The position numbers were made by a program, and so were the translations under genes. 53,998 bases of DNA from an uncultured Methylomarinum sp. (lineage in GTDB: Bacteria; Pseudomonadota; Gammaproteobacteria; Methylococcales; Methylomonadaceae), in NCBI GenBank assembly GCA_964399475.1, contig CAYNRB010000001.1:1-53998 (forward strand). Direction: 5' to 3'. Of the stretch, positions 28,914 through 51,100 are shown one piece after another. Every line of letters starts with the position of its first letter. Position 1 is the first letter of the stretch. The notes beneath the pieces are model-generated. The model searched no databases and was not told the origin of the DNA. It was given only the letters and a program-made list of their open reading frames with translations.

Positions 28914-28929
28914 CCTATCAGGAGATATA

Positions 28930-30236: not shown

Positions 30237-30388
30237 TTCAATTCACCATCATGGAAGACAATGTTCTGCATTACGAAAAACTAATAATAATGACAGAATG
30301 CACTGTATAGCAACCTGGATATTTATGAAAGATTCACAGGTTTATTATCACAAATTACCAAACTAATTTTACAGAACTACAAAACCTT

Positions 30389-30553
30389 TAAGGAGTGAGG
30401 ATTTAATAATATCCGAAAGTTTGGCGCAGGATTTTTGTTCGTCTTCAAGGCGTAGAAACGGGCGCATAGCGAGCTATGCAACTGTTTCTACAACGCAGAA
30501 GACGGACAAAAAGACAAGCCAAGATTCGGATATTATTAAATCCTCGCTCCTAA
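30389..30553 (+). repeat. LHE copy 4 (variant B, inner stem partly degraded)
   Basis: Outer arms identical to copy 3. Loop is GGGCGCATAGCGAGCTATGCAAC. The left inner arm carries mismatches. Confidence 0.85.
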
Positions 30554-30712
30554 GGTGGCTTCCAACAATAAATATGCCAGAATTGCGTAGGATTTTTGTT
30601 TCTGATTAAACAATCTCAAGAGGCGCATAGTTATTCTACGTAACGATTGAGATTGTTTGATCAGGAACAAAAAGACAAGAAAGTTTGGACTATTTATTGT
30701 TGGAAACCACCT
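30553..30712 (+). repeat. LHE copy 5 (variant C), abutting copy 4
   Basis: Outer arms AGGTGGCTTCCAACAATAAATA / TATTTATTGTTGGAAACCACCT. Bulge motifs GCGTAGGATTTTTGT and ACAAAAAGACAAGAAAGTTT. Loop GAGGCGCATAGTTATTCTACGTAAC. A third, self-complementary inner stem (CTGATTAAACAATCTCAA). Confidence 0.85.
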
Positions 30713-30748
30713 AAATGTATAAGAAAACTCAAATAACAGGAAATTACA

Positions 30749-32422
30749 ATGTCTGATATCGAAATCGCTCAAAAGGCAGAAATGAAACCTATTATTGATT
30801 TAGTCAAAGAAAAGTTTGGCATTCCAGCTGAACACATGGATCCTTATGGCCATTACAAAGCAAAAGTATCATTAGAATATCTGGACAGTTTAACGGATAG
30901 AAATGAAGGCAAGTTGATTTTAGTTACCGCTATCAGCCCCACACCTGCTGGCGAAGGTAAAACCACAACAACGGTAGGTTTAGGCGATGCAATGAATCGC
31001 CTTGGCAAGAAAACCATGATGTGTTTACGTGAACCTTCACTTGGGCCCTGTTTTGGTATGAAAGGTGGTGCCGCTGGTGGAGGATATTCTCAAGTAGTAC
31101 CCATGGAAGATATTAACTTACATTTTACCGGTGATTTTCACGCCATTGGAGTTGCCCACAACCTATTGGCAGCACTAATTGATAACCATATCAACCATGG
31201 TAATGAATTAGGAATAGACCCAAGAAGAATTCAGTGGAAACGTGTGGTGGATATGAATGACCGTGCCTTACGTAAAATTACGGTCGGCCAAGGTGGCCCA
31301 GCCAATGGATATTTACGAGAAGACGGTTATGATATTGTGGTGGCCTCTGAGGTTATGGCTATATTATGTCTAGCAACGAGTCGTTCGGATTTAAAAGAAC
31401 GTTTAGGGCGTATTGTAGTAGCCTACAAAGCAGATCTAAAAACACCTATCTATGCTAGTGACTTAAATGCTCAAGGCGCGATGGCAGCATTATTAAAAGA
31501 TGCTATTAAACCCAACTTTGTACAAACGTTGGAAAATAATGTGGTTATTGTGCACGGTGGCCCCTTTGCCAATATTGCACATGGCTGCAATACCGTTACC
31601 GCAACCAAAACAGCATTAAAACTGGCTGATTACACTATTACTGAAGCAGGATTTGGTGCAGACCTAGGTGCTGAAAAATTCATTAATATTAAATGTCGCA
31701 TGGCAGGCTTAAAACCTTCTGCGGTTGTTTTGGTTGCAACCATTCGCGCATTGAAATTCCATGGAGGTATCAACAAAGAAGATTTAAACAAGGAAAATCT
31801 TGCCGCATTAGAGCAAGGGTTTGTTAATCTTGAACGTCATTTAGAAAATATCACCAGTAATTATGGATTGCCTTGTATTATTTGCATCAATCACTTTAGT
31901 TTCGATACAGATGCGGAAATCAGATTATTAATAGAAAAATGCAAAGCCATTGGAGCAATATGTGTAGTTTCAAAACATTGGGCTGAAGGAGGAATAGGTG
32001 CGGAACAATTAGCAAAAGAAATCATTAATATCGTAGATAACAGGGAGCCAGGATGTAGTTTTGTCTATGATAATGATATGACGCTTTGGAGCAAAATGGA
32101 AGCTATATCCACTAAAATTTATGGCGCAAGCGGAATAACAGCAAGCCCTAAAATTCGTCAGGAAATTGAAGCCTTACAAGAAAAATACGGAAAATTCCCA
32201 GTTTGCATGGCTAAAACTCAAATGAGTTTTTCAACTGACCCTACAGTTAAAGGTGCACCCTCAGGTCATACAGTAGAAATCAGCGAAGTAAAACTGGCTA
32301 ACGGTGCTGGTTTTATTGTAGCGATAGCCGGAAACATGATGACCATGCCAGGATTACCCAAAATACCTGCTGCTGAACGTATTGATATTACTAATGAAGG
32401 TAAAATTACGGGGTTATTCTAG
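30749..32422 (+). CDS. fhs: formate--tetrahydrofolate ligase
   Basis: 557 aa. Motifs [42 protein letters not shown] and [13 protein letters not shown]. Confidence 0.97.
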
Positions 32423-32969: not shown

Positions 32970-34679
32970 TTAGTTTAAATATAAAAGTATTTTCTGAAAA
33001 TAACTACTTATTACGATTATGGCAGTTATTGCTAGTGATATCACTAGCCAACCCATTATTTTTTTTCTTTTGGCGAATTTTTGATCCCTAAGCGCATTTT
33101 CAATGGCTCTTTGTTTTGCCCATTTTTGAGTATTAGCCTCTTCTATTATCAGTTTTTGATGGTATTCAAGTAAGCTATCAATTTCATCTAATACTTGTCC
33201 CATATTATTTTGTCTGGAAAGCGGCAACCAATTTACCATTTTTTCTACCATTTTAGTTAGCTGCTCTGGCAAATCTGAAAATTTTGAAGTCACTGAGATT
33301 TTCTTATTTTTCCATTGAGGCAATGCACCTGTTAGCAATTGATATAGAATGATTCCTACTGAATAGATATCAGTACGCTTGGTTTTTACTTCACTTTGTA
33401 ATTTATACCAATTTCTAATGCCACTTTTTTGATAATGCGCATCAAGTCCAAAGTCTGTAAGCTTTATTAAGCCATTTTCATCATAAAGTACATTGCTAGG
33501 TCTCAGATTACCATGGATAAGATTATTTTGATGTGCAAAGGCCAACCCCATACAAATTTCCCGCACAGTCTTTAATGCCTCATTCCATGGACTTGCAATA
33601 ATTAACCGATCCTGTAATGCACCTCCGTTCAAATATTCCATGACAATAATATAGGATCGGTCATTTTTAGAAGTCCCATAGATTTTGGCAATATTCTTAT
33701 GGACTAGTGATTTTAGCAAATTTGTTTCATTAAAACCTTTACTCCAAATAGGTCTTTTTTTAATAATCAGCAGATTATTATCATTTTTATTTTCATATAA
33801 GTAAATAGCACTTTGCTTTTCTTCTTGTATAACATCCAATAAAGAAAATCGTGTTTTAAGGTTAGAAATTCCTTGTTCTGCTCGTTGTTTTTGTTCGTTT
33901 TTTAAATGGGTACCGCGGAGTAATTTCAGCAAAACATCTTTAACAATATCTACAGAAACAGGCCTGCTGTCTGGTTCCATATTGAGACACTGTAAAATTA
34001 TTTTATCTAATAAGGGATCAATTCCTGCGACATATTCAGAGGGTGACACAATATCGCCAGTTGGCTGTTGCCCCGCAAATAGAACGTACATAACAACCCC
34101 TAGAGAGTATATGTCACTCAGTTCAGTTACATCTGAAGATGAAATTTGCTGCTCTGGTGACATATAGCCCAATGTACCCATCAACAATTTGTCTGATGTT
34201 GTTGCATGATTGATATCGCAAAACTGGGCAATACCAAAATCTAGAACATGAGCATGAAACTCCCTATCTATAAAAATATTAGCGGGTTTAATATCTCTAT
34301 GGATTACGCCATTTTTATGCGCATAACTCAGCGCTTTACAGACCTGGATTATAATTTCCAGTTTTTTTATAATTTCTAGACTTCCCAATTGAATAAATTT
34401 CGCTAGATCCTGTCCTTCTAGATACTCCATAATAAAATAGGGTGTTTTGTCAGACAATAAACCACGATCTATAACATGGATTACATGGGGGTGATTCAAC
34501 TGTGCAATAATATACGACTCGCGTTCAAACAAATTTATCACTAATGGTTGATCTGCCAATTGTTGATGAATAACTTTGATCGCTACTTTTCGTTTAAGTG
34601 AGTTCTGTATACCTTGGTATACAGTTGCCATTCCACCAGTACCTATAGTCTCAATAATTGTATAACCAGGAATTTGCAT
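32970..34679 (-). CDS. membrane-anchored Hanks-type Ser/Thr protein kinase with a second, pseudokinase-like domain
   Basis: Domain 1 has GTGGMATVY, VAIKVI, HRDIKPANIF, DFGIA and GTLGYMSPE. Domain 2 (about aa 280-500) has LIHGNLRPSNVL, where HRD is replaced by HGN, plus TDFGL. C-terminal TM is WLVISLAITAIIVISSYF. Confidence 0.85.
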   Translation of the reverse strand: MQIPGYTIIETIGTGGMATVYQGIQNSLKRKVAIKVIHQQLADQPLVINLFERESYIIAQLNHPHVIHVIDRGLLSDKTPYFIMEYLEGQDLAKFIQLGSLEIIKKLEIIIQVCKALSYAHKNGVIHRDIKPANIFIDREFHAHVLDFGIAQFCDINHATTSDKLLMGTLGYMSPEQQISSSDVTELSDIYSLGVVMYVLFAGQQPTGDIVSPSEYVAGIDPLLDKIILQCLNMEPDSRPVSVDIVKDVLLKLLRGTHLKNEQKQRAEQGISNLKTRFSLLDVIQEEKQSAIYLYENKNDNNLLIIKKRPIWSKGFNETNLLKSLVHKNIAKIYGTSKNDRSYIIVMEYLNGGALQDRLIIASPWNEALKTVREICMGLAFAHQNNLIHGNLRPSNVLYDENGLIKLTDFGLDAHYQKSGIRNWYKLQSEVKTKRTDIYSVGIILYQLLTGALPQWKNKKISVTSKFSDLPEQLTKMVEKMVNWLPLSRQNNMGQVLDEIDSLLEYHQKLIIEEANTQKWAKQRAIENALRDQKFAKRKKIMGWLVISLAITAIIVISSYFQKILLYLN

Positions 34680-34760: not shown

Positions 34761-35561
34761 ATGCAGAAAAATATATTTAATAAATATACTGCGACGGGAA
34801 TAACTGATGTTGGATGTGTGCGTAAACACAATGAAGATACCTACCTCATAGATAAGAAACTTGGCTTATTATTGGTAGCAGATGGAATGGGAGGTCATGA
34901 AGCTGGTGAAGTAGCTAGCAAAGAATCTATACGAATCATTCTGCAAATGCTTCGTATGCAACAGCCTGTTGAAGAAAATAAATCATGGTTTTATCGATTA
35001 CTACGCCTGTTTCAACATGATGATGTAGACACCCATGAAGAAGAAGATCATTTGGAAAAGGCTTTATTCGAAGCAAATAACTACATATTCCAACTGAACA
35101 TGGAAAGGGGAGCGCCTAGTGGCACAGGAATGGGCACCACCCTTGCTGGCTGCTGGATAGTGAGGCCTGACTTAATGCTAGTATTTCATATTGGTGATAG
35201 CCGAGTTTATAGGCTTAGAAATGGAGAACTAAAATTAATAACAAAAGATCACTCAGTTTTGCAGGATTGGCATGATAATGGAAAAATCGGCGAGCAACCC
35301 AAATCAAACGTAATTAATCGGGCTGTAGGCCCCTACCAGACAGTTACGCCTGAAATACAGGTAATTGATATTCAAAATACCGACAGCTTTTTAATTTGTT
35401 CAGATGGCTTATCAGATATGGTTGATGATCAAGAAATTGAAAAACAACTAGAAGGTTTAAACGCTAGACAAATTGATAATTACTCCCATAAATTACTGAT
35501 TTCTGCCCTAGCACTAGGAGGGAATGACAATATTACAATTGTTTTGTTAACGCACGATTAA
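34761..35561 (+). CDS. PP2C-family Ser/Thr protein phosphatase
   Basis: 266 aa. Motifs TDVGCVRKHNEDTY, LLLVADGMGGHEAGEVAS, GTTLAG, ICSDGLSD and GGNDNITIVLL. Confidence 0.9.
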   Translation: MQKNIFNKYTATGITDVGCVRKHNEDTYLIDKKLGLLLVADGMGGHEAGEVASKESIRIILQMLRMQQPVEENKSWFYRLLRLFQHDDVDTHEEEDHLEKALFEANNYIFQLNMERGAPSGTGMGTTLAGCWIVRPDLMLVFHIGDSRVYRLRNGELKLITKDHSVLQDWHDNGKIGEQPKSNVINRAVGPYQTVTPEIQVIDIQNTDSFLICSDGLSDMVDDQEIEKQLEGLNARQIDNYSHKLLISALALGGNDNITIVLLTHD

Positions 35562-35718: not shown

Positions 35719-36426
35719 TCAATCAGATGAAAATTTGATAAATAATTTTTTAATTCTGATTTCATCAGAGGGTATTAATAAGCAACTTGAACTAATCACA
35801 CTTCCATTCAAGGTTACTTTTTTCTTTTTCACTGGACTAATATAAAACGAATGACCCACTTTATCAATTTCTGCAATATGAGCTGCAGTAAAAAAACCAC
35901 CTATCCGAATATCATTCTTTTTTGCCTTTCCAATAGAGTAGCTATCTTTAGTCAATAGCATTTTTTTTATTCCATTTAAATCACCTTTTACGATTAAATA
36001 GAAACTCTTCTGCTTGATATCTGAAGCAGCTTGAGATGTACCGGGTCCAGAAACTTTTGAAGATGACACCATAATTACAGTAGCATCACTCGACTCTTGT
36101 ACTGATACTGGAGCAGAACTATTTTGCTGTATCTGACTCCATTCCGAAATCTTTAAAATATGTTTACCAATAGTAACCGAATCTTCAAAACGAATTTTTT
36201 GACGTGTGCTTATCTTTTGGCTATTTAGAAATGTACCATTCGAACTATTCAAATCTTCAATGGTATATTGTCCGTTACTTACACTTATTACAGCATGAAA
36301 ACTTGAAACGCCCATATTATTGATAACAACTTCATTACTAGATGCTCTTCCAATACTAACAGTAACAGTTTTAATGGGTAAAGACTGCTTTAAGACGCCA
36401 TTAAAATAAATTTCAAGATAATTCAT
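35719..36426 (-). CDS. protein with two FHA domains
   Basis: 235 aa. FHA-1: SIGRASSNEVVINNMGVSSFHAVISVSNGQYTIEDLNSSNGTFLNSQKI. Ser-rich linker. FHA-2-like: YSIGKAKKNDIRIGGFFTAAHIAEIDKVGHSFYISPV..KVTLNGSVI. Confidence 0.8.
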   Translation of the reverse strand: MNYLEIYFNGVLKQSLPIKTVTVSIGRASSNEVVINNMGVSSFHAVISVSNGQYTIEDLNSSNGTFLNSQKISTRQKIRFEDSVTIGKHILKISEWSQIQQNSSAPVSVQESSDATVIMVSSSKVSGPGTSQAASDIKQKSFYLIVKGDLNGIKKMLLTKDSYSIGKAKKNDIRIGGFFTAAHIAEIDKVGHSFYISPVKKKKVTLNGSVISSSCLLIPSDEIRIKKLFIKFSSD

Positions 36427-38086: not shown

Positions 38087-41000
38087 TTACTTTACTTTAT
38101 TACTAGTAAACCAGGGAGTACCATCTTTTTTCAAATACATTTTATGCATTTCTTGTTGAGTAAAAGGTCTGGATCCAATTCTACCAAAAACTGCAATTTG
38201 ACCGCCTGTTTCATCTACTGCTCGATCTCTATCTAAACCTTTAGACAAGGCTAATGCAATATTTGAAGTTGGATACGAAGCTATTAGTTCAGGCTTAGGT
38301 TCTGGGCTAAAGCCATAAAACTTAGGCTGACTATCCGGTGATGTTAGTTGCAATACTTTCAATCCATTTTTACCATCAGCAACATAACCAATCAAAGAAG
38401 CATTAGTAGAAGCGACAATAACATCTCTTGCATCATTGAGTTGACCATTAGCTGTAAACAACTGTAGCAGCTTAGGACTTTCTGGTTTTTCAACATTTAT
38501 GATAGCTAAACCCTGCGAGCCTGCTGCCACATAAGCATAGGTTCTAGCAACATAAATTCGATTCGCATCCGTTAAAGCAACCGAGACACCACTGATTAAT
38601 TTTGCTTTTTCAGGCGTTGTTACATCAATAACTTTAAAACCATCTGCATCGGTTACAAATAGATATCTAAATTGTAAAGCTGTAGATTTAGCATTATTCA
38701 AGGGTATCACTGCCGCAACTTTTGGCGATAGCGGCGAATCCAAATTGATAATAATCAAACCGACATCCGCTGTAATATAGGCATAATAGCCACCTAGCGT
38801 TATATGTTTAGCTCCTTTTAGAATATTATCCCCATTCCATGTTAATGCACGTGTAAGAAAGTTATTTCTCGCTTTTCCGTCCGACAATGTATTTACATCG
38901 GTCAGAATTAAGCCTTCTTCTGCATCAACAATAAAGGCATAGTTATAGATTGGATGGAAATCCTGTTCCTGATTCGTCTCATTCATCAATTTACTCATCG
39001 CTTCGGCAGAAAGACCATAGTTACTTTCATAGCGGCGTTGTGGATGAATGGGTTGATTGGTAGGTAAAGCCATACAAGTCGCATTTTTAGAACTTATATG
39101 AGTATCATGTCCCAATGGTGAAAATGGCGCCGTTATAATTCGTTGAGAAATACCTTTATTGGCAATACTGGCAACATCATAGACTCTAAATCCACCTGAG
39201 CCTTCGGCAACATATAAATATTCTCCGCGTAGTTGTAAGCAGCTTGCTACATCAGAACTATGACTATGTACTCTTTTTAAGACTTGTTTATTATTTTGAT
39301 GATCCTTATACCAATCAGGGTAAGCATATTTATGTAAATAGCTACCTATCACGGCTTGAGGTTCTTCCCACTCAGTTACTTGAATAGCTGATATACCACT
39401 TTCTGTTCCCACATAGGCATTATATCCAACAAAGTTTACAAAATTGGTACCCTGTAATAACAGTTGAGCCATGATTGCATTATTATCATTTTCTGCAGAT
39501 AAATGACAATCTTCACATTGTTTGGTTTCTGTTTTACGCGTTGTATGTGGAAAATTGGGGGCGAATGCCTGTGCACTAAAACCACTCGATGAAACTGGAG
39601 GTTGCTGGATATAAATCAGTTCCCTGTTTGCATTTCTGGATGAAAGTATCAAGGCTGAAGATGAACGCACAGGAACTATTCTATTGCCCTTAACCTGTCC
39701 ATGACGACCAATTTGAAACATTTGGTCACGAACTACTTGTGGATTATAAGTTGCGTAATTACGCGCTTCTCCACCTTCATAATGAAGTGTGTCTGTTTTC
39801 CAGTTTGCCTGAATAGGTAAATGACAACCGGCACAACTGGTCACCCACGAACTATGACAAGTAAAGCAGGTCATATTTTCATTTTTATGAGCTCTATCTT
39901 CAGGAGCTACATCGGTTCCCCAAGCTAATGTCTCTGAATTTTTCGATACTAATTTTGCTCGAGCTGCTTTGGCATTATAGGTGGTATGAGCAGGATTAAC
40001 GGTATCTTTGACTAGACTCAGCTCCCATTCCTTATCACTAAATAAGGCAGAACGTTGATACAACTTATTGCCACGCCATTCAAATCGTAATTTACCATCC
40101 TGATTCCTTAATGTAGAAAGATCAGTACCACCAATTGCAGCAGCAGGGCCACTGGTTCTTAAATTTGGATAGGCATCAGCTGTACCATGACAATCTATGC
40201 AATCAACTTCTATTGCTGCTGCTACTTCACCATATAAATGACCATTGCCATGCGAATCTTGAGCAAAGTGACAATCTACACAGTGCATCCCTACGTCCAT
40301 GTGAATAGATGACAGATGAACAGCTTTATTGAATTTTTCTGGATCAGTATCACTGACTTCATTACCTGATGCATCTAATAAGGTACCTTTACGATCACGC
40401 TTAAAAACTGCTCTAAAATTCCAGCCATGTCCGTGATAGTCTGCAAATTGAGTGTCTTTAAGCTTAGGATTCAAATCGGAAACATTTTTGACAAATTCAA
40501 GGTCTTTCCATTTACCTCTTGCTGCTGCTTCCTCAGGATTCCTTTCATTGATTTTTCTGACTTCCGCATGACTCAAAATTTGCTCAGGATCTGGGTTTGC
40601 TCCTGCTCTTACTTGATCACTATTCAAATATCTTTGCTTTTCAGGCCACATATGCGGCGCATCCGATTCATAATCCCACATCGTATAACCCATGAAACTA
40701 TTTACAAAAATATTAGGTTGATGCATATGACAAATCATACATTGACTGGTCGGAATTGCTCTGGTGAATTGATGTTTAATAGGATGTCCCGACTCATTTT
40801 TAGAAATAGTCGGATCTATGGTCTGAGTTTTTCCTGAATGTCCAGCTTTGGCATAAGGACCAGAATGTTTTGGATCCCGATCATTTGCATAGACTACGTG
40901 ACAAGACCCACAACCTGATGTTCGATAATCTCCAGGTTGATCATTGGTCCCTAAAAACCATGTAAAAGGATCATTAAGACGAGTTTTGTGTATGTTAAGA

Positions 41001-41878
41001 ACGGGAACTGAAATTCGTCCACCGGTACCAGAACCTCGATTAGATTGCTTAATATCTGGACGACCCGGCTCTTCAAGTCGTTGAATCAAACCTAAGGCAT
41101 TAGGCAACCCAGTCTCAGGAAATAAATTAGTTATATTACGCCCACCTGCTTCAAAGACTCTGAAAACATCACCCTGTGGCATGTTTTCCCATCTTGGCAA
41201 CGGAATTAATGCAGGTACAATCCCTTTAGCGATCATATTTTCATCAGGTTCATGTGGATTAACCAACTTCTTGGGTAATCCTTCGCGCGTATATGATTCG
41301 CCCATAAAATAGCGTTTATATGGAACAATTCCATTATTGTATGCAGCTCCGCCCCACAACATAGCACCGGTAGCCATTAAACTTCTTTCAGATGCTTCAA
41401 TTATCTTCATATGGCATGCACCACATGACTCTCTTACAATCCGATAATCACTAGGATTAACAAAACGAATATATTCTGGTGATTCTCTATTCAAAAGGGT
41501 AAAACTATGCTTTGGATTCGCACTACTGGGATAATTCCACTCATTTGGTAAAGTAGGGATGACATGTGCTTTATTCATTGAAAGCTGGTATTCCAAATCT
41601 TTATCTGCACTGTTTTCCGGCTTAAACTCATCAGCGTTACCACCATGACAATCTACGCAACCCAAAGGCACTGCTTCAGTTTGATGCATAGATTGACTGT
41701 CTGTTTCGATATGACAACTCAAACAACCTCTAGACTTGGCATCAACTGCTTGCGGATCTTGGAATTGAGGTGCAATCAATGTTGAAGAATCTTTATCAAC
41801 ATCAAAAGCAGCATATCCGTTTATTGATACCAATAGGAATGCTATAAAAGAAAATATAATCAGCTTACATTTATTCAT
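38087..41878 (-). CDS. secreted decahaem c-type cytochrome fused to a C-terminal LVIVD-repeat beta-propeller
   Basis: 1263 aa with a signal peptide (IIFSFIAFLLVSINGYAA). Ten CxxCH motifs at aa 52, 74, 152, 323, 380, 533, 560, 671, 682 and 788. Residues ~880-1185 carry at least six LVIVD-like repeats (YLYVAEGSGGFRVYDV, YAFIVDAEEGLILTDV, YAYITADVGLIIINLDSP, YLFVTDADGFKVIDVTTP, YAYVAAGSQGLAIINVEKP, IGYVADGKNGLKVLQLTSP). Confidence 0.85.
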   Translation of the reverse strand: MNKCKLIIFSFIAFLLVSINGYAAFDVDKDSSTLIAPQFQDPQAVDAKSRGCLSCHIETDSQSMHQTEAVPLGCVDCHGGNADEFKPENSADKDLEYQLSMNKAHVIPTLPNEWNYPSSANPKHSFTLLNRESPEYIRFVNPSDYRIVRESCGACHMKIIEASERSLMATGAMLWGGAAYNNGIVPYKRYFMGESYTREGLPKKLVNPHEPDENMIAKGIVPALIPLPRWENMPQGDVFRVFEAGGRNITNLFPETGLPNALGLIQRLEEPGRPDIKQSNRGSGTGGRISVPVLNIHKTRLNDPFTWFLGTNDQPGDYRTSGCGSCHVVYANDRDPKHSGPYAKAGHSGKTQTIDPTISKNESGHPIKHQFTRAIPTSQCMICHMHQPNIFVNSFMGYTMWDYESDAPHMWPEKQRYLNSDQVRAGANPDPEQILSHAEVRKINERNPEEAAARGKWKDLEFVKNVSDLNPKLKDTQFADYHGHGWNFRAVFKRDRKGTLLDASGNEVSDTDPEKFNKAVHLSSIHMDVGMHCVDCHFAQDSHGNGHLYGEVAAAIEVDCIDCHGTADAYPNLRTSGPAAAIGGTDLSTLRNQDGKLRFEWRGNKLYQRSALFSDKEWELSLVKDTVNPAHTTYNAKAARAKLVSKNSETLAWGTDVAPEDRAHKNENMTCFTCHSSWVTSCAGCHLPIQANWKTDTLHYEGGEARNYATYNPQVVRDQMFQIGRHGQVKGNRIVPVRSSSALILSSRNANRELIYIQQPPVSSSGFSAQAFAPNFPHTTRKTETKQCEDCHLSAENDNNAIMAQLLLQGTNFVNFVGYNAYVGTESGISAIQVTEWEEPQAVIGSYLHKYAYPDWYKDHQNNKQVLKRVHSHSSDVASCLQLRGEYLYVAEGSGGFRVYDVASIANKGISQRIITAPFSPLGHDTHISSKNATCMALPTNQPIHPQRRYESNYGLSAEAMSKLMNETNQEQDFHPIYNYAFIVDAEEGLILTDVNTLSDGKARNNFLTRALTWNGDNILKGAKHITLGGYYAYITADVGLIIINLDSPLSPKVAAVIPLNNAKSTALQFRYLFVTDADGFKVIDVTTPEKAKLISGVSVALTDANRIYVARTYAYVAAGSQGLAIINVEKPESPKLLQLFTANGQLNDARDVIVASTNASLIGYVADGKNGLKVLQLTSPDSQPKFYGFSPEPKPELIASYPTSNIALALSKGLDRDRAVDETGGQIAVFGRIGSRPFTQQEMHKMYLKKDGTPWFTSNKVK

Positions 41879-41929: not shown

Positions 41930-43768
41930 TTAGTATGTGAGTATTAAATTACCCAAAACAGAATATAGTGTTTTATTACCATATAAATCTTTTAGGGCAT
42001 CTCCAGGGACTAAAGCCGCACCTGATAGTCGAAAAACAATATTCTGACTAAACTTAGGCCTATATATAGCAGAAACAGATAAGTCCCAGCCTATATCCGA
42101 GCTGATGCTGCCCTGATTCCTGGCAACTTCAAGCACATTTGTCTCATCAAAATAGAGTTTGTTAAAGTTTGTTGAAAGTCGAAATTCGGGTAAAATATCC
42201 ATATCGGTTCCAAGACCTATTAACACTATCCCCGGATTGGTAAAGTTTGACTGACCTTGATCTTTTGAAGATTCTAGTGAATTTAATATGCCATTTCTAC
42301 CAGATAGGGCAACACCTCCACCTCCTATAAAAGGCACGGCTTGCCTGATCCAAAAGCTACTATCAGCTCCAGCAAACTGAGGGTTTTCAACTATCGCATC
42401 ATAACCATTTGACTTGTTATCAAAGGCATCATCATCACCTGACGCATATAATCCAGACAACCTGACCCGTATCCAATCAAAATCCATGGACAGTTCACCG
42501 GCAAAAAAGTAAGCATCTATTTCACTTTCATCTACATTATATAAACCAGTCGTTTCATCTCCAAATAGATAATATCCAGATACAGTCAGATTGACCCGCC
42601 CAAAATGACCATCTCCATTAAAGCCCGCGTAATAGGCATCATAATCTCGGCCGATTTCATTTCCAATTGAAGCAGGTCTGACTAAAAATCCATTATCGTC
42701 GAAGAAACTATTATTTGCTTCTCTATTTCGGTTATAAGCAAAAGTTAGTTGAGACGTAAATCCACGTACCGGAAAATCTTGACGAAAAATATTTCCAAAG
42801 AAAACTTGATCATCTCGCAAGTCTTCAGAAATATCATTTAAACCGCTATTGGTATCTTTTTCGTGTCGCCAGATTGCAGCTAAATTGTATTGCCATAAAT
42901 TGTTATCCCATGTACCAAACAATCGAGCACCTAATTGTATATCCTGGAACAGGAAGCCTCTGAAATCTAAGGAAAAAGGCTGAATACCCACTCTGATACT
43001 ATTAAAATCATACCGATCAGAACTATTGTTTATATGATAATCTACAAATAGTTCTTGTATCGCAATATGACCATCTTCACGATCAGTACCTTCGCGCGGA
43101 TCTATATTCAAAAAACGCCGCTCCTCCACATCTGTGTAGTTATAATTAAACACAGGTGTAATACGAAATTCAAAATCTGGTGGTCTAAAAACTGTGTCAC
43201 CTTTGAAAAACACAAAAGCAACAATTAAATTTTGATTAAATAAGTACTGATCCTGAGAACCAAATACATCTATATCACCAGCGCTTGCAGTGGTTTGATT
43301 ACCATTTGGCGTAGGTATAAGCCTGTATTCACCAATCGTATCTGATATTACTGATACATTAGCAAACCAGTCATCAAAAATAGGTCTGTCACTTTTAATC
43401 AAATTCCGGTTATAGGGATCCAGAAAGCCTTCTTTTATGCCAATTGCATCCGCAATTCTCCAGCGATCAGGAACCGGTATAAATGTTTCAGGATAAAGAC
43501 CTTTTAATGCAGGAATCCGTTGAAGTCCACTTTTTCTGTTTGGGTCGGCAAGTTCAACGACTTCTGCTTCACTAACTGCAGTTGCACCAGGTCTGATACG
43601 CCTTCTTTCTCCACTCCCTTCATTTGAAGCATTCTCAGAAACGATATCTTGTTCAGCCACTACTGCAATTCCAGCATTTACAGTTGGTAAATAACACCAG
43701 CTGCTAGCTAATAATGTCAAGGCGACAGAACCTATAAAAGGTTTTTTATTATTTTCCACTGCATGCAT
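41930..43768 (-). CDS. putative large outer-membrane beta-barrel protein
   Basis: 612 aa. Signal peptide (SVALTLLASSWCYLPTVNA), pervasive alternating aromatic/polar beta-strand patterning, and a C-terminal ...LGNLILTY aromatic terminus typical of BAM substrates. Its start overlaps the upstream gene by 20 nt. Confidence 0.6.
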   Translation of the reverse strand: MHAVENNKKPFIGSVALTLLASSWCYLPTVNAGIAVVAEQDIVSENASNEGSGERRRIRPGATAVSEAEVVELADPNRKSGLQRIPALKGLYPETFIPVPDRWRIADAIGIKEGFLDPYNRNLIKSDRPIFDDWFANVSVISDTIGEYRLIPTPNGNQTTASAGDIDVFGSQDQYLFNQNLIVAFVFFKGDTVFRPPDFEFRITPVFNYNYTDVEERRFLNIDPREGTDREDGHIAIQELFVDYHINNSSDRYDFNSIRVGIQPFSLDFRGFLFQDIQLGARLFGTWDNNLWQYNLAAIWRHEKDTNSGLNDISEDLRDDQVFFGNIFRQDFPVRGFTSQLTFAYNRNREANNSFFDDNGFLVRPASIGNEIGRDYDAYYAGFNGDGHFGRVNLTVSGYYLFGDETTGLYNVDESEIDAYFFAGELSMDFDWIRVRLSGLYASGDDDAFDNKSNGYDAIVENPQFAGADSSFWIRQAVPFIGGGGVALSGRNGILNSLESSKDQGQSNFTNPGIVLIGLGTDMDILPEFRLSTNFNKLYFDETNVLEVARNQGSISSDIGWDLSVSAIYRPKFSQNIVFRLSGAALVPGDALKDLYGNKTLYSVLGNLILTY

Positions 43769-45740
43769 TTTGTTTACCTGAATTTAAAAATGGCTTATAA
43801 GGACATTGAACATAACGTAATCTAACACCAGCGAGTACTAAATTATCTGCGCGAATTTCAGGAGGTGCATTATTTACAGTATTAATTAGCTTACCTGCAT
43901 TATGCACGCCTAAAAAGGAAATCAAATCATCCTGATCAATACCATCACCTGAAACACCCAAGCCACCGATTAAGGTATTACCACGATAGACTGGAACGCT
44001 TCCTGGGAAAATCTGTATTCCATTTCTTAACTCTGGTATGGGCTGACCTACAGTAAAGTTCTGAATTCCCAAAAAGTTAGCAATAAAGTTTAATGTAGCG
44101 GGAGGGGAAGCTGTACAATCTTGTCCGATATCGGGAGCTAAGCCATAAAATGCAGCGACATGAGTCAACATACCATTAATAACCAGATCTAATTGTAATC
44201 CAGTTGAAAAAGGGCTCCATTCTGGAAAAGGCTTGCTAAAAGGGCCATTTTGAGCCCGTTGAAGACCATCAGGGAAAAACGGTCGAGATAAATTTCCACC
44301 GGCTCTATCTGTGAATGCAACTGCACCGGTCAAAACATTAGGATCATTGAATAAAGTAATTGTAGCATCGACATAACTGCTAATGGGAAAGCCAATTGCT
44401 TGACCTGGAAAACTAACATAAACAGCATCAGAAGCTGAATTCAATTTGTCTTGAGCGTCGCTCTTTGAAAAAAACATTGCTGTTCGTGCCTTTTGTAAGG
44501 ACACATCGGTACCAAATATTGGAGCATCTCGAGTTCGAACAACCCCTAGAATATCACCTTGGGTATCCACCAACGAAACTGTAACGCGAGCTTGAGAGTT
44601 AAAGGGTTGACGAATCTGCGCCCTGGCACTATTTGCAACTGCTATTGCACTGCGTAATAAAGCTAAGGATTCATCTCGGCTTATTCCTACACCCGCACGA
44701 ACAGGAAATCTTTCTTGGTTTGCATTATCAACTAGTACGAAAGCATCCAATCCAGCATAATCATTAGATGCCGGCCTTATTCCAGAATTTACCTCACCAA
44801 AAGCAGTACCTGCCAAAACCTGACCATCAAAATAGACAGGAACAGGGATAAGTAAACCTTTACCTGCTATTTGGGATAAATCCGAAAGTACATTAGAAAC
44901 CGTTTGAGTTTTTAAGTTTTTATATCGAATATCAGAATATCGTAGAGACTTACCTTCAACAGTAATACGATCAGCCCGATTTTTTCTGGAAGATTCAAAT
45001 CCTAAGGTTCCAGCAAGTGCAACCCGTTCATCAATAATATTATCCCGATCTCTAATATTAAGATCAGCACCATAAATTAAATCAGTCTCAACGCCAATCC
45101 CCCCAACTAAAGCTCCGTCTTTGTATAATGGAAAGCCACCAGGATCAGCAGAAAGCCCTAATGGAGAACGTTTAGGTCCAACATCTGCACCCGATGAAAA
45201 TCGCGTAACTAAATCTGAACAAGCAAGTGAACTAAATTGCACACCAAACAGTGGCCCTGCTGGTTGATTAAATTCCTGAGGGTTAAAATTCTGCATAATG
45301 ATATGACTTGCAGTACGCGTAGAAAACGCATTGCCTTCTGAAGAAAGATAGGCACCGGTAATTGCTTTGGCAATAGCTGATAGACTAGCTGGAATAACCC
45401 CTTTTATCCCATCCAAACCGGTCATAACGTTTCTTCCACCGTTTATCTCGATTCTTGGAAAAAAAGCATTATTTGGAAAAGGACCATTCATTTGATAAAC
45501 AGCCAATACATTTCCAACTCTATCAGTTACTGAAATTGTAGAGAATACACCCGCTATTTCAGACTCTTGTACAGCCTGAACAATAATCCGTCTAACATCA
45601 CTTTCTGTTAAGAAACTATTCGCTGTTGAGCAAAAGCCTGTACAACCATCCTTCGCAGAAATCTGAGGTGAAAATGATAAACAATTTGCTAGAAACACAA
45701 AACTTGCTATTAATTTTAGATTATATCTTTTCTTTTTCAT
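43749..45740 (-). CDS. secreted protein with two GlcG/HbpS-like (DUF336, haem-binding) domains
   Basis: 663 aa with a signal peptide. Two copies of the GlcG pattern: (1) VRRIIVQAVQES...ISVTDRVGNVLAVYQMNG ... AKAITGAY ... GGFPLYKDGALVGGIGVE; (2) LLRSAIAVANSA...TVSLVDTQGDILGVVRTRDA...SLQKARTAMFF ... FPGSVPVYRGNTLIGGLGVSGDGIDQDD. Confidence 0.6.
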   Translation of the reverse strand: MKKKRYNLKLIASFVFLANCLSFSPQISAKDGCTGFCSTANSFLTESDVRRIIVQAVQESEIAGVFSTISVTDRVGNVLAVYQMNGPFPNNAFFPRIEINGGRNVMTGLDGIKGVIPASLSAIAKAITGAYLSSEGNAFSTRTASHIIMQNFNPQEFNQPAGPLFGVQFSSLACSDLVTRFSSGADVGPKRSPLGLSADPGGFPLYKDGALVGGIGVETDLIYGADLNIRDRDNIIDERVALAGTLGFESSRKNRADRITVEGKSLRYSDIRYKNLKTQTVSNVLSDLSQIAGKGLLIPVPVYFDGQVLAGTAFGEVNSGIRPASNDYAGLDAFVLVDNANQERFPVRAGVGISRDESLALLRSAIAVANSARAQIRQPFNSQARVTVSLVDTQGDILGVVRTRDAPIFGTDVSLQKARTAMFFSKSDAQDKLNSASDAVYVSFPGQAIGFPISSYVDATITLFNDPNVLTGAVAFTDRAGGNLSRPFFPDGLQRAQNGPFSKPFPEWSPFSTGLQLDLVINGMLTHVAAFYGLAPDIGQDCTASPPATLNFIANFLGIQNFTVGQPIPELRNGIQIFPGSVPVYRGNTLIGGLGVSGDGIDQDDLISFLGVHNAGKLINTVNNAPPEIRADNLVLAGVRLRYVQCPYKPFLNSGKQNACSGK

Positions 45741-45829: not shown

Positions 45830-46375
45830 TTATTTTACTAAACCAAGATTCACAATTTTTACCCGTCTGTTTTTTGAGGAACCAGGATGTTTAGGGTCTA
45901 TTAACTCTGTCTCGCCTTTACCAACAACAACCATGCGTTCAACTGCAACACCATAATTATTGGTCAGATAATTACTAACAGAATCTGCACGTTGCTTTGA
46001 TAGATTATCGTTATATCCAGACTCTCCTAAGGCATCAGTATGTCCTTCAATTCTAAATTTATAAGACTGTAGTTGGGAGCCTTTAAGTGCGGTTCCAAGA
46101 GAATCTAGAGTTGTTTTGGTTCGCTCAGTTAAATCCGCAGAATCAAAATCAAATGTCAATGATAAATTTACTGCGACAGGCTTAGGATTAGTCTTTTTAA
46201 CCTGCCCTATACCTCGCGTTTTAATCCCTACACGAGGTACTAAAGCGTTGGTGAATTCTTCTTGAGTAGGAATTGCTGTTCCAAAATCAGTCACGCTTTC
46301 ATCAGCATAAACGAATCCATTGAAGCCAATTATTGACGAAATTGCTATTACTGAAACTGTCATATATATTTTCAT
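45830..46375 (-). CDS. OmpA-family peptidoglycan-associated protein
   Basis: 181 aa with a signal peptide. Motif: FDFDSADL...RIEGHTDALGESGYNDNLSKQRADSVSNYL...GKGETEL...NRRVKI. Confidence 0.8.
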   Translation of the reverse strand: MKIYMTVSVIAISSIIGFNGFVYADESVTDFGTAIPTQEEFTNALVPRVGIKTRGIGQVKKTNPKPVAVNLSLTFDFDSADLTERTKTTLDSLGTALKGSQLQSYKFRIEGHTDALGESGYNDNLSKQRADSVSNYLTNNYGVAVERMVVVGKGETELIDPKHPGSSKNRRVKIVNLGLVK

Positions 46376-47160: not shown

Positions 47161-48504
47161 ATGGCTTCAACAGTTAATTTGATTAAAGGCTGCATCTTTT
47201 TTTCATTTTTGTTTTTTCAAATAGCTATTTCTGAAGCAGCCAGTACAGCTATTCCCCAATTCGCAGACAACATCCATTTAGGTGTTGCAACATGTGCAGG
47301 GAGCGCATGTCATGGCTCTTCAGAACCCTTTGACACCTCCACCGTATTACAAAATGAATATCTCACTTGGCAACGCCACGACAAACACTCCAAAGCCTAT
47401 AAAGTTCTTTTCAATGATAGATCTAAAAGAATTGCTCGCAATTTAGGCCTAAAAGCAGCTCATACCGCGAAAATTTGCCTGGATTGCCATACTGATAATG
47501 TAGCTAAAGATAAACGTGGGCGCCGTTTTCAATTATCTGACGGTATTGGTTGTGAAGCTTGTCACGGTGGCGCTGAAAAATATTTAGGCCCACATGTCTC
47601 TGGATTAGCCACACATCAAGAAAATATCGACAATGGACTCTACCCTACTGAAAATCCAATCCAGAGAGCAAAACTTTGCCTTTCATGCCACTTAGGTACC
47701 AATAGCCAATTTGCAACCCATGACATTATGGGAGCGGGTCATCCACGAATTAACTTTGAATTGGATACCTATACTGCAACATCACCCGCCCACTATAAAG
47801 TCGACAAAGATTACCGAGAGAGAAAAGTAGTCTGGAGCCATGCTAGAACATGGGCTGTTGGTCAAGCAATGGCCGTTCAACAATATCTTAATCTTCTTAC
47901 CTCGCCAAAACGGCTAAAAAACGGCCTATTTCCAGAACTTGCTGTATTTGAATGTTATGCCTGCCATCAATCTATGAATGGTCAACGCTGGCAAAAACGT
48001 GAATCCAGTGACATAGGACCCGGAAATATTCGACTTCAGGAAAGCAATATTCTGATGATGAAACATATTGCTAAAGTTATTGACCCTAGCCTTGCCAGTT
48101 CTTTGCATACCAAAACTTTAAATCTTCATCAAGCCAGCACACAAAGCATCCCAAGCATTGTCAGTGCCGCAAAAGAACTAAAAGTATTGAATAGACAGCT
48201 AATTAATAAAATTGCCAGTACAAGTTTTTCTAGCGCAATTATTAACAAAGTACTTTCCAGCATCATCAATGATGGGATTAAAGGCAATTACTTTGATTAC
48301 GCAAGTGCCGAACAAAGTTTAATGGCAATTGAAGCATTAGCAACAACTTTAGCCAACGCCCGTGCGATTGATTTTTCAAGTTCCAGCCCTTTAGCTAAAA
48401 GCATTGATAAACTCTACGTGCTATTAGTAAATGATGATAATTTTTCTCCAAGCTCATTTGCTAGCGAATTAAAACAAATACAAACTAACCTTTCTATAAA
48501 ATAG
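47161..48504 (+). CDS. periplasmic multihaem (4x CxxCH + 1x CxxxxCH) c-type cytochrome with a non-haem helical C-terminal half
   Basis: 447 aa with a signal peptide (CIFFSFLFFQIAISEA). Motifs CAGSACH, CLDCH, CEACH, CLSCH and CYACH all lie in the first ~270 aa. AGGGG RBS. Confidence 0.8.
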   Translation: MASTVNLIKGCIFFSFLFFQIAISEAASTAIPQFADNIHLGVATCAGSACHGSSEPFDTSTVLQNEYLTWQRHDKHSKAYKVLFNDRSKRIARNLGLKAAHTAKICLDCHTDNVAKDKRGRRFQLSDGIGCEACHGGAEKYLGPHVSGLATHQENIDNGLYPTENPIQRAKLCLSCHLGTNSQFATHDIMGAGHPRINFELDTYTATSPAHYKVDKDYRERKVVWSHARTWAVGQAMAVQQYLNLLTSPKRLKNGLFPELAVFECYACHQSMNGQRWQKRESSDIGPGNIRLQESNILMMKHIAKVIDPSLASSLHTKTLNLHQASTQSIPSIVSAAKELKVLNRQLINKIASTSFSSAIINKVLSSIINDGIKGNYFDYASAEQSLMAIEALATTLANARAIDFSSSSPLAKSIDKLYVLLVNDDNFSPSSFASELKQIQTNLSIK

Positions 48505-48691: not shown

Positions 48692-51100
48692 ATGTCAGAT
48701 TCAAAACATTACAATATAGTTATCATTGGTTCTGGCCCCGGCGGAATGAGTGCTGCGGGTCGTGCTCAGGAAGCAGGTTTAAATTATATTTTACTTGAAG
48801 CCACAAGCCACCTATCCTATACCATTCACCTTTATCAAAAAGGTAAACACGTCATGGATGAACCGACTATTTTGCCTTTACGCAGTACCTTCGGGTTTAC
48901 AGCCGAATCTCGAGAGGAAATATTAGGTAAATGGGAAGATAAAATAAAATCCCTCAATGTTAATATTCAGTACGACTCCTATGTCGAAACAATTTCTGGT
49001 GAATCAGGAAATTTCACCATTAATATCAAAGGTGGGGAAGTAATAACTGCCGATAAAATTGTGCTTGGAATCGGGCTTCAAGGTAATCTTCGCAAAATGG
49101 GAGTAGAAGGTGAAGATTTACCTTTTGTACAATATCAACTGGATGACCCTGAAGAATATGAAGATGAAACGATTGTGGTTATTGGAGCGGGTGATGCAGC
49201 CATAGAAAATGCCATTGCTTTAGCAAAACAAAATAACGTTATTATCGTAAACCGAAAGAATGAGTTTGCACGAGCAAAAAAGGGCAATCTTAATGGCATT
49301 ACTAGAGCGATAGAAACCGAAACTTTAGAATGCTACTACAATTCAACCAGTGAATGCGTTAAAGCCCTTGATCAACCAGGTGAAAATGGAGAAAAAGGTG
49401 TTTTAGTTCTCAATACTGATGAGGGAACCACTGAAATACCTATACATCGAATCATTGCTCGCTTAGGTGCAATCCCTCCCAGACGATTTGTTGAAGCTTG
49501 TGGAATTGTTTTTCCTAGTAAGGATCCTGCGGCAGTTCCTGCTATCAGTGAAACCTATGAATCAAATGTTCCTGGCTTGCATATAGTCGGTGCTTTAGGC
49601 GGAAATCCTCTGATTAAAGCAGCCATGAACCAAGGCTATGAGGTCATTGAACACATTCAAGGCAACCCAATCGCACCAGCGGATGAGCCACTCTTAAAAG
49701 ACAAGTTTTCTAACCTTGATGCCAGCTTGTCGGTTAGCCAATTACTTGCCCAACTCTATAGCGCTTTACCATTCCTCCAATCATTAACTAAATTACAATT
49801 TAGAGAATTCATTTTAGACAGTGAGATAAGATTACCTCAACCAGGCGAGACCATATATGCAATCAATGATTTCAGTAACTCCTTCTATTCTATTATCACA
49901 GGTCAAGTCGATTTAATTTCTACCGCTGGAGAACGTGATCAGAAATCTACACTACAAAATGGTGATTTTTTTGGTGAATGGAGCTTAATATCGGGTCGCC
50001 GACGTTCTGATACCGCTATTGCCGGTAATAACTGCTTATTAATCGAAAGCGGTCGTAGAATGATGAAAAAACAAATCAGCTCGGATCCTTCCATAGCCGA
50101 TGCGATCAATAAAGTTTTCATCATGCGTGCAGTACAAACTCATCTTGCGCCTGGTGTTCCTCAAGCATTACTCAAAAAATACTTGAATCGAGCAGATATT
50201 GCTTATTTCAAACCCGGTGATTTCTTGCAGAAAGAAGGGGAATCTTGTAGTACCTTTCATATAATACGCTCTGGATCAGTTACGGTTTCACGCAAAGTAT
50301 CTGGCAAAGAAGTCTTAATTTCGTATATGCCTGTGGGTGAATTTCTGGGAGAAATGGCCATACTCAGTGGCAATGCTTGCATGACAACCGCTACGGCTAC
50401 TGTCGCAACTGAAACCATTAGTCTTGATGCCAGCATTTTTACCGAGATGATGAATGATGTTCCTCAAGTTGCACAACTAATTGAAAGCACTTTACAAGAA
50501 CGCCTTAGGGATTATGTACAACTACAAAATCATCCTGAACGAGGTGCAGCAATCTCATTTATGATGCAACAGGGCTTAGGTGAAGCAACCGATGTTCTGG
50601 TTATTGACGAATCATTATGCGTACAATGCGATAACTGCGAAAAAGCCTGTGCGGAAACCCACAACGGCACTTCTCGATTAGATCGTGAAGCTGGCCCCAC
50701 CTATGCCTCACTCCATATTCCAACATCTTGCCGACATTGTGAACAACCACACTGTATGAAAGATTGCCCTCCTGATGCCATTCATCGAGCAAATAATGGT
50801 GAAGTCTTTATTGACCAAAGTTGTATAGGATGTGGTAATTGCCAGCAGAACTGTCCCTACGGTGTCATACAAATGGCAAAATCCGGAACCAAAACCACCA
50901 ATCTTTTTCAATGGCTAGTACTTGGTAAAGGTTCGGCACCCGGAGAAAAAGCAACCCATTTTGATGCTGATGTTCAAAAGAAAGCGGTTAAATGTGATAT
51001 GTGTAAAGATTTACCCGGCGGACAAGCCTGCGTTAGAGCCTGTCCAACGGGTGCTGCAATTCGCATAAATCCTGAACAACTTATTGAATTAACCATATAA
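48692..51100 (+). CDS. cytoplasmic fusion oxidoreductase: FAD/NAD(P)-binding pyridine-nucleotide-disulfide-type domain + two cyclic-nucleotide-binding domains + four-cluster [4Fe-4S] ferredoxin domain
   Basis: 802 aa with no signal peptide. Rossmann motifs IVIIGSGPGGMSAAGRA and IVVIGAGDAAIENA. cNMP-like blocks FFGEWSLISGRRRSDTAIA and FLGEMAILSGNACMTTATA. Cys groups CVQCDNCEKAC, CRHCEQPHCMKDCP, CIGCGNCQQNCP and CDMC..x7..CVRACP (DmsB/NrfC-like spacing). Confidence 0.8.
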   Translation: MSDSKHYNIVIIGSGPGGMSAAGRAQEAGLNYILLEATSHLSYTIHLYQKGKHVMDEPTILPLRSTFGFTAESREEILGKWEDKIKSLNVNIQYDSYVETISGESGNFTINIKGGEVITADKIVLGIGLQGNLRKMGVEGEDLPFVQYQLDDPEEYEDETIVVIGAGDAAIENAIALAKQNNVIIVNRKNEFARAKKGNLNGITRAIETETLECYYNSTSECVKALDQPGENGEKGVLVLNTDEGTTEIPIHRIIARLGAIPPRRFVEACGIVFPSKDPAAVPAISETYESNVPGLHIVGALGGNPLIKAAMNQGYEVIEHIQGNPIAPADEPLLKDKFSNLDASLSVSQLLAQLYSALPFLQSLTKLQFREFILDSEIRLPQPGETIYAINDFSNSFYSIITGQVDLISTAGERDQKSTLQNGDFFGEWSLISGRRRSDTAIAGNNCLLIESGRRMMKKQISSDPSIADAINKVFIMRAVQTHLAPGVPQALLKKYLNRADIAYFKPGDFLQKEGESCSTFHIIRSGSVTVSRKVSGKEVLISYMPVGEFLGEMAILSGNACMTTATATVATETISLDASIFTEMMNDVPQVAQLIESTLQERLRDYVQLQNHPERGAAISFMMQQGLGEATDVLVIDESLCVQCDNCEKACAETHNGTSRLDREAGPTYASLHIPTSCRHCEQPHCMKDCPPDAIHRANNGEVFIDQSCIGCGNCQQNCPYGVIQMAKSGTKTTNLFQWLVLGKGSAPGEKATHFDADVQKKAVKCDMCKDLPGGQACVRACPTGAAIRINPEQLIELTI

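Follow-up and report, generated by a model that had tools for sequence, protein, structure and literature searches.

What does a ten-haem cytochrome that ends in a β-propeller do at the cell envelope, and which proteins does it work with? The question is raised by a 53,998-nucleotide stretch of DNA from an uncultured Methylomarinum sp. (positions 1 to 53,998 of contig CAYNRB010000001.1, GenBank assembly GCA_964399475.1; hereafter the window), in which an initial annotation, made from the letters alone, had pointed to such a protein and to a C-terminal propeller of LVIVD repeats. Here, we investigated the protein, its homologs, and its gene neighborhood using profile searches, structure prediction, and synteny. 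We confirmed a decahaem c-type cytochrome with a C-terminal LVIVD propeller at the level of putative haem sites and predicted fold. Its family is real, widespread, and strongly conserved, and it has neither a published description nor a family name. The gene stands in a conserved cluster whose products may form an electron chain across the envelope.

The decahaem-propeller cytochrome

The gene and its parts are as follows, with the evidence for each in parentheses.

38087-41878 (-): decahaem c-type cytochrome with a C-terminal LVIVD β-propeller, 1263 residues (open reading frame, or ORF; CxxCH motifs; Pfam LVIVD; AlphaFold2, or AF2, model; homologs)
41810-41878 (-): Sec-type signal peptide, residues 1-23, MNKCKLIIFSFIAFLLVSINGYA/A, without a lipobox (read from the sequence)
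39479-41809 (-): haem domain, residues 24-800, with ten CxxCH (motifs, alignments, AF2 model)
38234-39436 (-): predicted β-propeller of about seven blades, residues ~815-1215, with LVIVD-like units at residues 882-1185 (AF2, Foldseek, Pfam)

The ten CxxCH motifs that had been counted over about 790 residues are all present. They begin at residues 52, 74, 152, 323, 380, 533, 560, 671, 682, and 788 and span residues 52-792, while shuffles of the same protein gave a mean of 0.014 such motifs and never more than one. We also looked for the CxxxCH, CxxxxCH, and CxxCK variants in the 1263-residue protein and found none. All ten motifs are retained in 82 of 84 homologs, and the cysteine pairs and the histidine of every motif are invariant in an alignment of 15 sequences. 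In an alignment of 118 sequences, nine of the ten are fully invariant and the first (residues 52-56) is at least 90% conserved. The haem domain additionally carries an invariant motif, FADYHGHGWNFRA, at residues 478-490. A Gly/Arg/Pro-rich segment at residues 237-289 (41012-41170 of the window) is near-invariant across the 118 homologs and was modeled with a predicted local distance difference test score (pLDDT) below 50, which suggests that it is likely ordered only together with a partner protein, a haem, or a cofactor. A 136-residue antisense ORF (40427-40837, +) lies inside the cytochrome gene and is most likely a shadow ORF.

The signal peptide ends ...NGYA/A, and similar Sec signals are borne by the homologs, with a lipobox-like string in only 4 of 85. 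Their C-termini are short, no sorting domain was seen across the phyla of the family, and the Bacteroidia homolog has no type IX secretion system domain. In one diverged member (P0132), additional c3/c7 multihaem modules are fused to the N-terminus, an arrangement that suggests electron entry at the N-terminal end of the decahaem-propeller protein.

The LVIVD hidden Markov model (HMM; PF08309) that the initial annotation had named as a check scores 41.4 bits against the whole protein and 51 bits against the C-terminal 463 residues, with a gathering score of 20.2, and the LVIVD annotation is precomputed for essentially all homologs. The count of at least six repeats at 38324-39241 held in part: six LVIVD-like units can be made out by eye (residues 882-1185), and the model has about seven blades, but only two repeats are individually significant by HMM. 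We modeled residues 45-1244 with AF2 using 118 sequences, to a mean pLDDT of 79.1 and a predicted template modeling score (pTM) of 0.85. The model consists of a mostly helical haem domain up to about residue 575, a β-rich sub-domain at about residues 600-760, and about seven four-stranded blades at about residues 815-1215, for which pLDDT exceeds 90. The predicted blades agree with the propeller fold that had been proposed for the C-terminus, and the β-rich sub-domain agrees with the suggestion that the wide spacing of some haem motifs marks extra non-haem structure.

A Foldseek search of the whole model against the PDB shows β-propellers in all of the top 50 matches, with target-normalized TM-scores (TMt) of up to 0.69 against seven-bladed examples. 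The neighbors include cd1 nitrite reductase, AztD, an archaeal S-layer YVTN propeller, BtuG, BACUNI_02894, mLST8, and PorZ. The best match is cd1 nitrite reductase with an E-value of 1.2e-7, a TMt of 0.36, and 9% identity, a likeness of the generic propeller fold only. The most conserved stretches of the protein are the linker at residues 760-820 and the tail at residues 1215-1244, where 48-52% of the columns are invariant. Because this conservation comes together with a pTM of 0.85, it implies that the interface between haem domain and propeller is fixed in the predicted structure, with the propeller packed rigidly and not hung on as a tethered adhesin. The invariant residues C880, C935, and H1025 lie at the heads of the innermost strands of consecutive blades, and R1071, R1112/T1113, and T1158-A1160 are invariant in adjacent turns. 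These polar residues hint at a candidate site on the propeller axis.

Of the named families covered by Pfam, NCBIfam, and PDB searches, ExtM (NF040943), from a Geobacter selenite/tellurite-reduction operon, alone clearly matches a part of the cytochrome. Residues 523-792, which hold haems 6-10, align with positions 258-501 of the ExtM model at an E-value of 1.6e-17. The score is 63.1 bits vs an equivalog cutoff of 800, the match covers less than one quarter of the protein and ends before the propeller, and the gene context of ExtM differs from that of the window cluster. A kinship to octahaem cytochromes, which had been raised earlier, found no support, as PDB, Pfam, and NCBIfam searches turned up nothing similar in sequence to HAO, Otr, or MccA. 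PDB sequence searches with the single protein (E-values up to 1) and with a 15-sequence profile likewise gave no meaningful match. The initial annotation had also raised the c553o family of Methylococcus capsulatus (MCA0421 and MCA0423). There, the c553o genes are part of a copper-responsive cluster that also holds TonB-family genes (PMC4831470), a genomic context that differs from the window cluster.

The family and its conserved gene cluster

A word-indexed search of 90%-identity clusters scored at least 8000 candidates, of which 7999 were significant; the best 120 of these matches are full-length and 65-83% identical. We also searched 50%-identity representatives exhaustively with residues 45-1244 as the query. 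This gave 19,332 matches at E-values of 1e-3 or below and 1089 at 1e-30 or below, including full-length members that are 40-53% identical. The source names of the homologs are limited to "hypothetical protein," "LVIVD repeat," and "multiheme c-type cytochrome." A scan of one genome per species found the cytochrome in at least 599 species. The carriers belong to the Gamma-, Beta-, and Alphaproteobacteria and the Acidobacteriota, with one Bacteroidia metagenome-assembled genome (MAG), and Methylobacter and Methylococcus MAGs are among them. Cultured carriers include Parahaliea maris, Limnobacter alexandrii, a Fontimonas strain, Sphingoaurantiacus capsulatus, and two Spectribacter species. When a diverged member served as the query, the family extended further, taking in Planctomycetota, Rokubacteria, Riflebacteria, Wallbacteria, KSB1, and Thermoanaerobaculia.

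A full-text literature search returned no description of an LVIVD-fused multihaem cytochrome, and its matches concerned unrelated proteins. These included papers on Tenderiales uet, on direct interspecies electron transfer in Methanosarcina, and on mycobacterial PE/PPE proteins. A Methylobacter bioanode paper shows a classical MtrA/MtrB-type cluster instead of the one described here, and neither a peat extracellular electron transfer preprint nor a Woeseiaceae paper describes the architecture. Furthermore, we found nothing in the literature joining alginate export with multihaem cytochromes, or multihaem cytochromes with cyclic nucleotide monophosphate (cNMP) binding, thioredoxin reductase, or FHA.

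The cytochrome gene belongs to a cluster that is contained whole in the window. Its other members are listed below.

41930-43768 (-): AlgE-like outer-membrane β-barrel, 612 residues, directly upstream of the cytochrome gene (AF2, Foldseek, synteny)
43749-45740 (-): putative secreted GlcG/HbpS-like protein with a double domain, 663 residues, its gene overlapping the barrel gene by 20 nt (Pfam HbpS-like)
47161-48504 (+): putative periplasmic c554-like cytochrome, 447 residues, with four CxxCH, one CxxxxCH, and a signal peptide (Pfam, motifs)
48692-51100 (+): predicted cytoplasmic flavoprotein, 802 residues (Pfam and NCBIfam matches)
51121-52059 (+): five-helix transmembrane (5-TM) protein, 312 residues (transmembrane segments, invariant histidines, weak Pfam match)
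52066-53811 (+): FHA-anchored decahaem c-type cytochrome, 581 residues (Pfam FHA, c7, and c3; motifs; transmembrane helix)

We analyzed synteny with tblastn over 84 loci, plus the contexts of diverse homologs. The barrel gene is directly upstream of the cytochrome gene in 77 of the 84 loci. The HbpS-like gene was found in 67, the FHA-decahaem gene in 60, the c554-like gene in 59, the 5-TM gene in 58, and the flavoprotein gene in 57, and the absences are mostly accounted for by contig ends. An all-against-all clustering of the ORFs in 82 loci showed no further recurrent neighbors other than a PP2C and an FHA protein, the remainder being mostly shadow ORFs within the conserved genes. When we scanned for promoters and terminators around the cluster, we found no more of them than in shuffles. 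In loci of the Planctomycetota type, the barrel-like gene and the LVIVD cytochrome gene are still paired and are accompanied by multihaem cytochromes, with Ser/Thr kinases and extracytoplasmic function (ECF) sigma factors alongside.

The subunits differ in how strongly they are conserved over the 84 loci. The LVIVD cytochrome is 61-69% identical to the window protein over its full length and across phyla, followed by the barrel (48-63%), the HbpS-like protein and the flavoprotein (41-56%), the 5-TM and c554-like proteins (34-53%), and the FHA-decahaem (25-38%). The LVIVD cytochrome is therefore the most constrained subunit, as expected for a terminal functional subunit, and the ranking fits such a subunit served by looser relays.

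The AF2 model of the barrel shows about 18-20 strands (pTM 0.73). Its best Foldseek match is AlgE, with an E-value of 7e-17 and a TMt of 0.65-0.68, followed by OccD/OccK-type and general porins; MtrB is not within the top 50 matches. UniRef names one homolog "Alginate export domain-containing protein." An N-terminal extension of about 100 residues is conserved and poorly modeled. The barrel has no haem motif, and it is too small to sheath a cytochrome. The HbpS-like protein matches Pfam HbpS-like with 76 bits in four stretches. Its relatives in the PDB are all small proteins that bind ligands or haem, namely EfgA, a putative extracellular haem-binding protein, and the PduO C-terminal domain. 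The c554-like cytochrome matches Pfam Cytochrome_C554 with 48.9 bits vs a cutoff of 20.8, and four CxxCH motifs are present in all 57 homologs extracted.

The flavoprotein has no signal peptide and is therefore taken to be cytoplasmic. It combines a TrxR/YpdA-like domain for flavin adenine dinucleotide and NAD(P)H, which has two Rossmann motifs, with two cNMP-binding domains. Furthermore, 16 cysteines fall into four ferredoxin-type groups, enough for four [4Fe-4S] clusters, and are kept in 54 of 55 homologs. In a Rokubacteria locus (L087; 6118-7818) and a Riflebacteria locus (L088; 18721-20847), a NuoE/NuoF-like NADH module with the domains 2Fe-2S_thioredx, Complex1_51K, and NADH_4Fe-4S stands instead of the TrxR-like domain, and the cNMP/Fe-S protein is retained without that domain. 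Because two non-homologous NAD(H) modules occupy the same place in the cluster, this swap argues that the cytoplasmic end of the system would exchange electrons with NAD(P)(H).

The 5-TM protein carries H83 and H97 in helix 3 and H290 and H304 in helix 5, two H-x13-H pairs that are invariant in 24 to 58 homologs. The positive-inside topology puts H83 and H290 toward the cytoplasmic side of the membrane and H97 and H304 toward its periplasmic side, at matching depths. Such an arrangement is the textbook signature of a transmembrane cytochrome b with two haems, and we infer that the 5-TM protein is a di-haem cytochrome of this kind, a candidate new family without a family assignment. The FHA-decahaem has an N-terminal FHA domain predicted to be cytoplasmic, one transmembrane helix at residues 138-156, and ten CxxCH motifs at high density in its predicted periplasmic part. 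Ten CxxCH motifs were found in 52 of 54 homologs.

By description, the flavoprotein, 5-TM, and FHA-decahaem genes match a trio reported in a 2026 bioRxiv preprint on Ferrigenium straubiae, which consists of a single-helix FHA-cytochrome, a 5-TM protein, and a [4Fe-4S] cytoplasmic protein and was called novel and of unknown function (10.64898/2026.01.22.701106). The Ferrigenium cytochrome has nine haems (NHC), no redox motif was noted in the membrane protein, and the trio lies beside nirK and an SHP gene (10.64898/2026.01.22.701106). The preprint mentions no LVIVD cytochrome, barrel, or HbpS-like partner.

Proposed electron path and rival explanations

We propose that the decahaem-propeller cytochrome is, by gene order, the distal redox subunit of an envelope-spanning electron chain, positioned at the periplasmic face of the outer membrane, a reading that draws on motifs, predicted folds, synteny, and the module swap and in which our belief and our doubt are about evenly balanced. 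In such a chain, NAD(P)H would bind the cytoplasmic flavoprotein with its flavin, four [4Fe-4S] clusters, and two cNMP-binding domains, and electrons would cross the inner membrane via the five-helix protein and its two putative b-haems. The membrane-anchored decahaem would then receive them, its cytoplasmic FHA domain being a possible target for control by Ser/Thr phosphorylation, and the c554-like cytochrome would relay them to the decahaem-propeller protein. Working alongside the AlgE-like barrel and the HbpS-like protein on the periplasmic side of the outer membrane, that protein would be the terminal site, exchanging electrons with a substrate that arrives through, or at, the barrel. The propeller may be the docking or catalytic end and the barrel a solute channel or an anchor. 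Cyclic nucleotides and Ser/Thr phosphorylation would gate the chain as a whole. We favor the periplasmic face as the location because the signals are plain Sec signals, no sorting domain is present, and the barrel is both haem-free and too small.

Several points weigh against this proposal. The cluster in the window is divided into two divergent arms, one on the minus strand and one on the plus strand, and co-transcription is no proof that the products touch one another or act in a given sequence along a chain. In a Methylobacter MAG (L006) and a Nevskia MAG (L075), no HbpS-like gene stands between those for the FHA-decahaem and the barrel, and this partner is therefore not obligatory. The di-haem b assignment of the 5-TM protein is inferred from the histidine pattern and from a match to Pfam Ni_hydr_CYTB (b561) of 22.5 bits, below the cutoff of 30.1, and a PDB profile search with this protein found no relevant relative. 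The Foldseek neighbors of the propeller include true surface proteins, namely the archaeal S-layer YVTN propeller, BtuG, BACUNI_02894, and PorZ. One locus (L003) has type II secretion genes close to the cluster, and the cytochrome could reach the surface through type II secretion.

The two last points are also what a surface cytochrome in the manner of MtrC or OmcA would lead one to expect. Here, the protein would be exported, for example by type II secretion, as a haem wire to minerals, humics, electrodes, or partner cells, with the propeller as an adhesion or docking platform. We consider this unlikely. It would suit the propeller, as LVIVD/YVTN-type propellers are typical of surface proteins (S-layer proteins of an archaeon and of Bacteroides are among the neighbors above), as well as the pairing of the cytochrome gene with an outer-membrane protein gene. 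The likeness to MtrCAB/Pcc of Shewanella and Geobacter extends to the ten haems, to a haem density of about one per 79 residues that is similar to MtrC and OmcA, and to the proposed movement of electrons toward the periphery. A weak match to the MtrC/MtrF domain II/IV model (PF22113) scores 25.3 bits vs a cutoff of 30 and is confined to residues 50-159; in one diverged homolog it is just above the cutoff. However, MtrC and OmcA are lipoproteins, and the window cytochrome lacks their lipobox, with no sorting domain in any phylum. An MtrB-type sheath has about 26 strands, whereas the AlgE-like barrel has about 18, is haem-free, and could not enclose a multihaem cytochrome. An MtrA/DmsE-type partner was not detected either, as all cluster cytochromes score 9-29 bits against TIGR03508, vs a cutoff of 192. 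With an AlgE-like barrel and no such partner, there is therefore no evident electron route across the outer membrane. Furthermore, a protein that stays 61-69% identical over its full length from phylum to phylum does not resemble the known surface cytochromes, and the propeller appears rigidly integrated rather than tethered. The input would differ as well, quinol via CymA in Mtr vs apparently NAD(P)H via an Fe-S flavoprotein and a b-type membrane protein here. Of the surface platform on a haem wire that the initial annotation had imagined, the decahaem protein with its propeller stands, and the surface role is disfavored by the Sec signal, the barrel, the rigid packing, and the level of identity.

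The direction of flow could also be the reverse, with the decahaem-propeller protein oxidizing a low-potential donor, periplasmic or delivered by the channel, and electrons passing inward to NAD(P)+ in the manner of Hmc and Tmc; this we find quite unlikely. Hmc and Tmc of sulfate reducers carry electrons inward, and their logic of a periplasmic multihaem c cytochrome, a membrane b cytochrome, and a cytoplasmic Fe-S protein, with no obvious quinone step, is matched in outline here. NuoEF-like modules are reversible in NAD+-reducing hydrogenases and formate dehydrogenases, and some carriers lean toward lithotrophy (Limnobacter, Spectribacter hydrogenoxidans, Methylococcales). Inward flow would, however, oppose the membrane potential and require a donor more reducing than NAD(P)H, and Pfam/NCBIfam scans detected no domain specific to such a donor, for example one with a Mo, Ni, or Cu center. 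Sequence alone is silent on direction. There is no detectable homology to Hmc or Tmc, with 18 bits vs a cutoff of 400 for HmcA and 17.5 vs 114 for TmcA; their cytoplasmic subunit is of the CCG type, whereas here it is an NAD(P)H flavoprotein with cNMP domains, and the outer-membrane barrel and the propeller-fused terminal cytochrome are extra relative to them. Very improbable, in our view, is a sensor in which the cytochromes report the periplasmic redox state via FHA, cNMP, and Ser/Thr kinase components. Such a function would make sense of the regulatory domains that abound in the cluster (two cNMP-binding, one FHA), of the PP2C, kinase, and FHA genes that recur beside it, and of the HbpS family, two of whose members, HbpS and EfgA, are sensors of redox state and of formaldehyde, respectively. 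Yet at least 24 conserved c-haem sites, four Fe-S clusters, and a flavin far exceed the needs of any known sensor, the NAD(P)H module is swapped and still retained across phyla, arguing for real electron flux, and we saw no output domain of a transcription factor within the conserved cluster.

To return to the periplasmic-face chain, the union of a c-haem domain and a β-propeller in one polypeptide recalls NirS and the hydrazine synthase alpha subunit. In NirS and hydrazine synthase, the propeller carries the active site; the cd1 propeller is eight-bladed and binds haem d1. The window protein, in contrast, has about seven LVIVD blades and ten haems and gives no sequence match to either in Pfam, NCBIfam, or PDB, and no cofactor site was identified in its propeller other than the invariant C880, C935, and H1025 near the axis. 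The cytochrome and its cluster thus fall outside the porin-cytochrome, Hmc/Tmc, cd1, and hydrazine synthase systems despite shared logic, and they are best filed as a variant among multihaem envelope electron-transfer systems.

A further-reaching version of the periplasmic-face chain, which we think somewhat unlikely, sees in the cluster a hitherto unrecognized class of envelope-spanning, NAD(P)H-linked oxidoreductase that is gated by cNMP and phosphorylation and bypasses the quinone pool. The tenth haem and the central pocket of the propeller would form its catalytic site, with solute arriving via the AlgE-like channel. The redox parts would then be a flavin, four Fe-S clusters, two b-haems, and at least 24 c-haem sites, an inventory that we put forward just as tentatively. 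If true, an "electron valve" or terminal reductase would have gone unnoticed despite being widespread, as hundreds of mostly aerobic species carry the cluster. Most of what is known of multihaem electron transfer across the bacterial envelope comes from a small number of specialists that respire metals or oxidize iron. The carriers of this cluster include common aerobic marine, freshwater, and soil heterotrophs as well as methanotrophs, in which the key protein is annotated "hypothetical." Should the system connect NAD(P)H with a redox site in the periplasm or outer membrane under cNMP and Ser/Thr control, it would represent a widespread, unstudied route of redox balancing or respiration at oxic-anoxic interfaces. 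Its value lies more in the complete, regulated, NAD(P)H-linked cluster than in the fusion itself, and the cultured carriers make testing feasible.

Signaling neighbors and other genes of the window

Three signaling genes lie on the far side of the cytochrome gene, and an OmpA-family gene heads the minus-strand arm.

32970-34679 (-): Hanks-type Ser/Thr kinase (Pfam)
34761-35561 (+): PP2C phosphatase (Pfam)
35719-36426 (-): double-FHA protein (Pfam)
45830-46375 (-): OmpA-family protein, 181 residues (Pfam OmpA)

Of the 84 loci, 16-18 have a PP2C gene near the cluster, and in most of these it lies immediately downstream of the c554-like gene. An FHA-protein gene recurs in 14 of the 84, and kinases recur beside the Planctomycetota-type loci. 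These associations suggest that the membrane decahaem could be under phospho-threonine control through its FHA domain, with the kinase, PP2C, and double-FHA proteins as candidate regulators. The OmpA gene is probably a local insertion outside the conserved cluster, because no homolog occupies an equivalent position in the 84 loci; one locus has an OmpA homolog near the cytochrome gene, at another position.

Elsewhere in the window are three flagellin genes (3338-4639, 4698-7274, and 10606-14697, all -). Two of them encode giant flagellins of 858 and 1363 residues, with normal N- and C-terminal flagellin domains and huge central inserts, and FliD (7834-9861) and MotY (390-1589) are encoded nearby. 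A run of genes of C1/serine-cycle type at 27549-32422 (+) encodes a DUF4147/MOFRL protein, probably of the glycerate kinase or hydroxypyruvate reductase type, a serine hydroxymethyltransferase, and a formate-tetrahydrofolate ligase. This run and the low G+C content (32-42%) are compatible with a methylotroph-like gammaproteobacterium.

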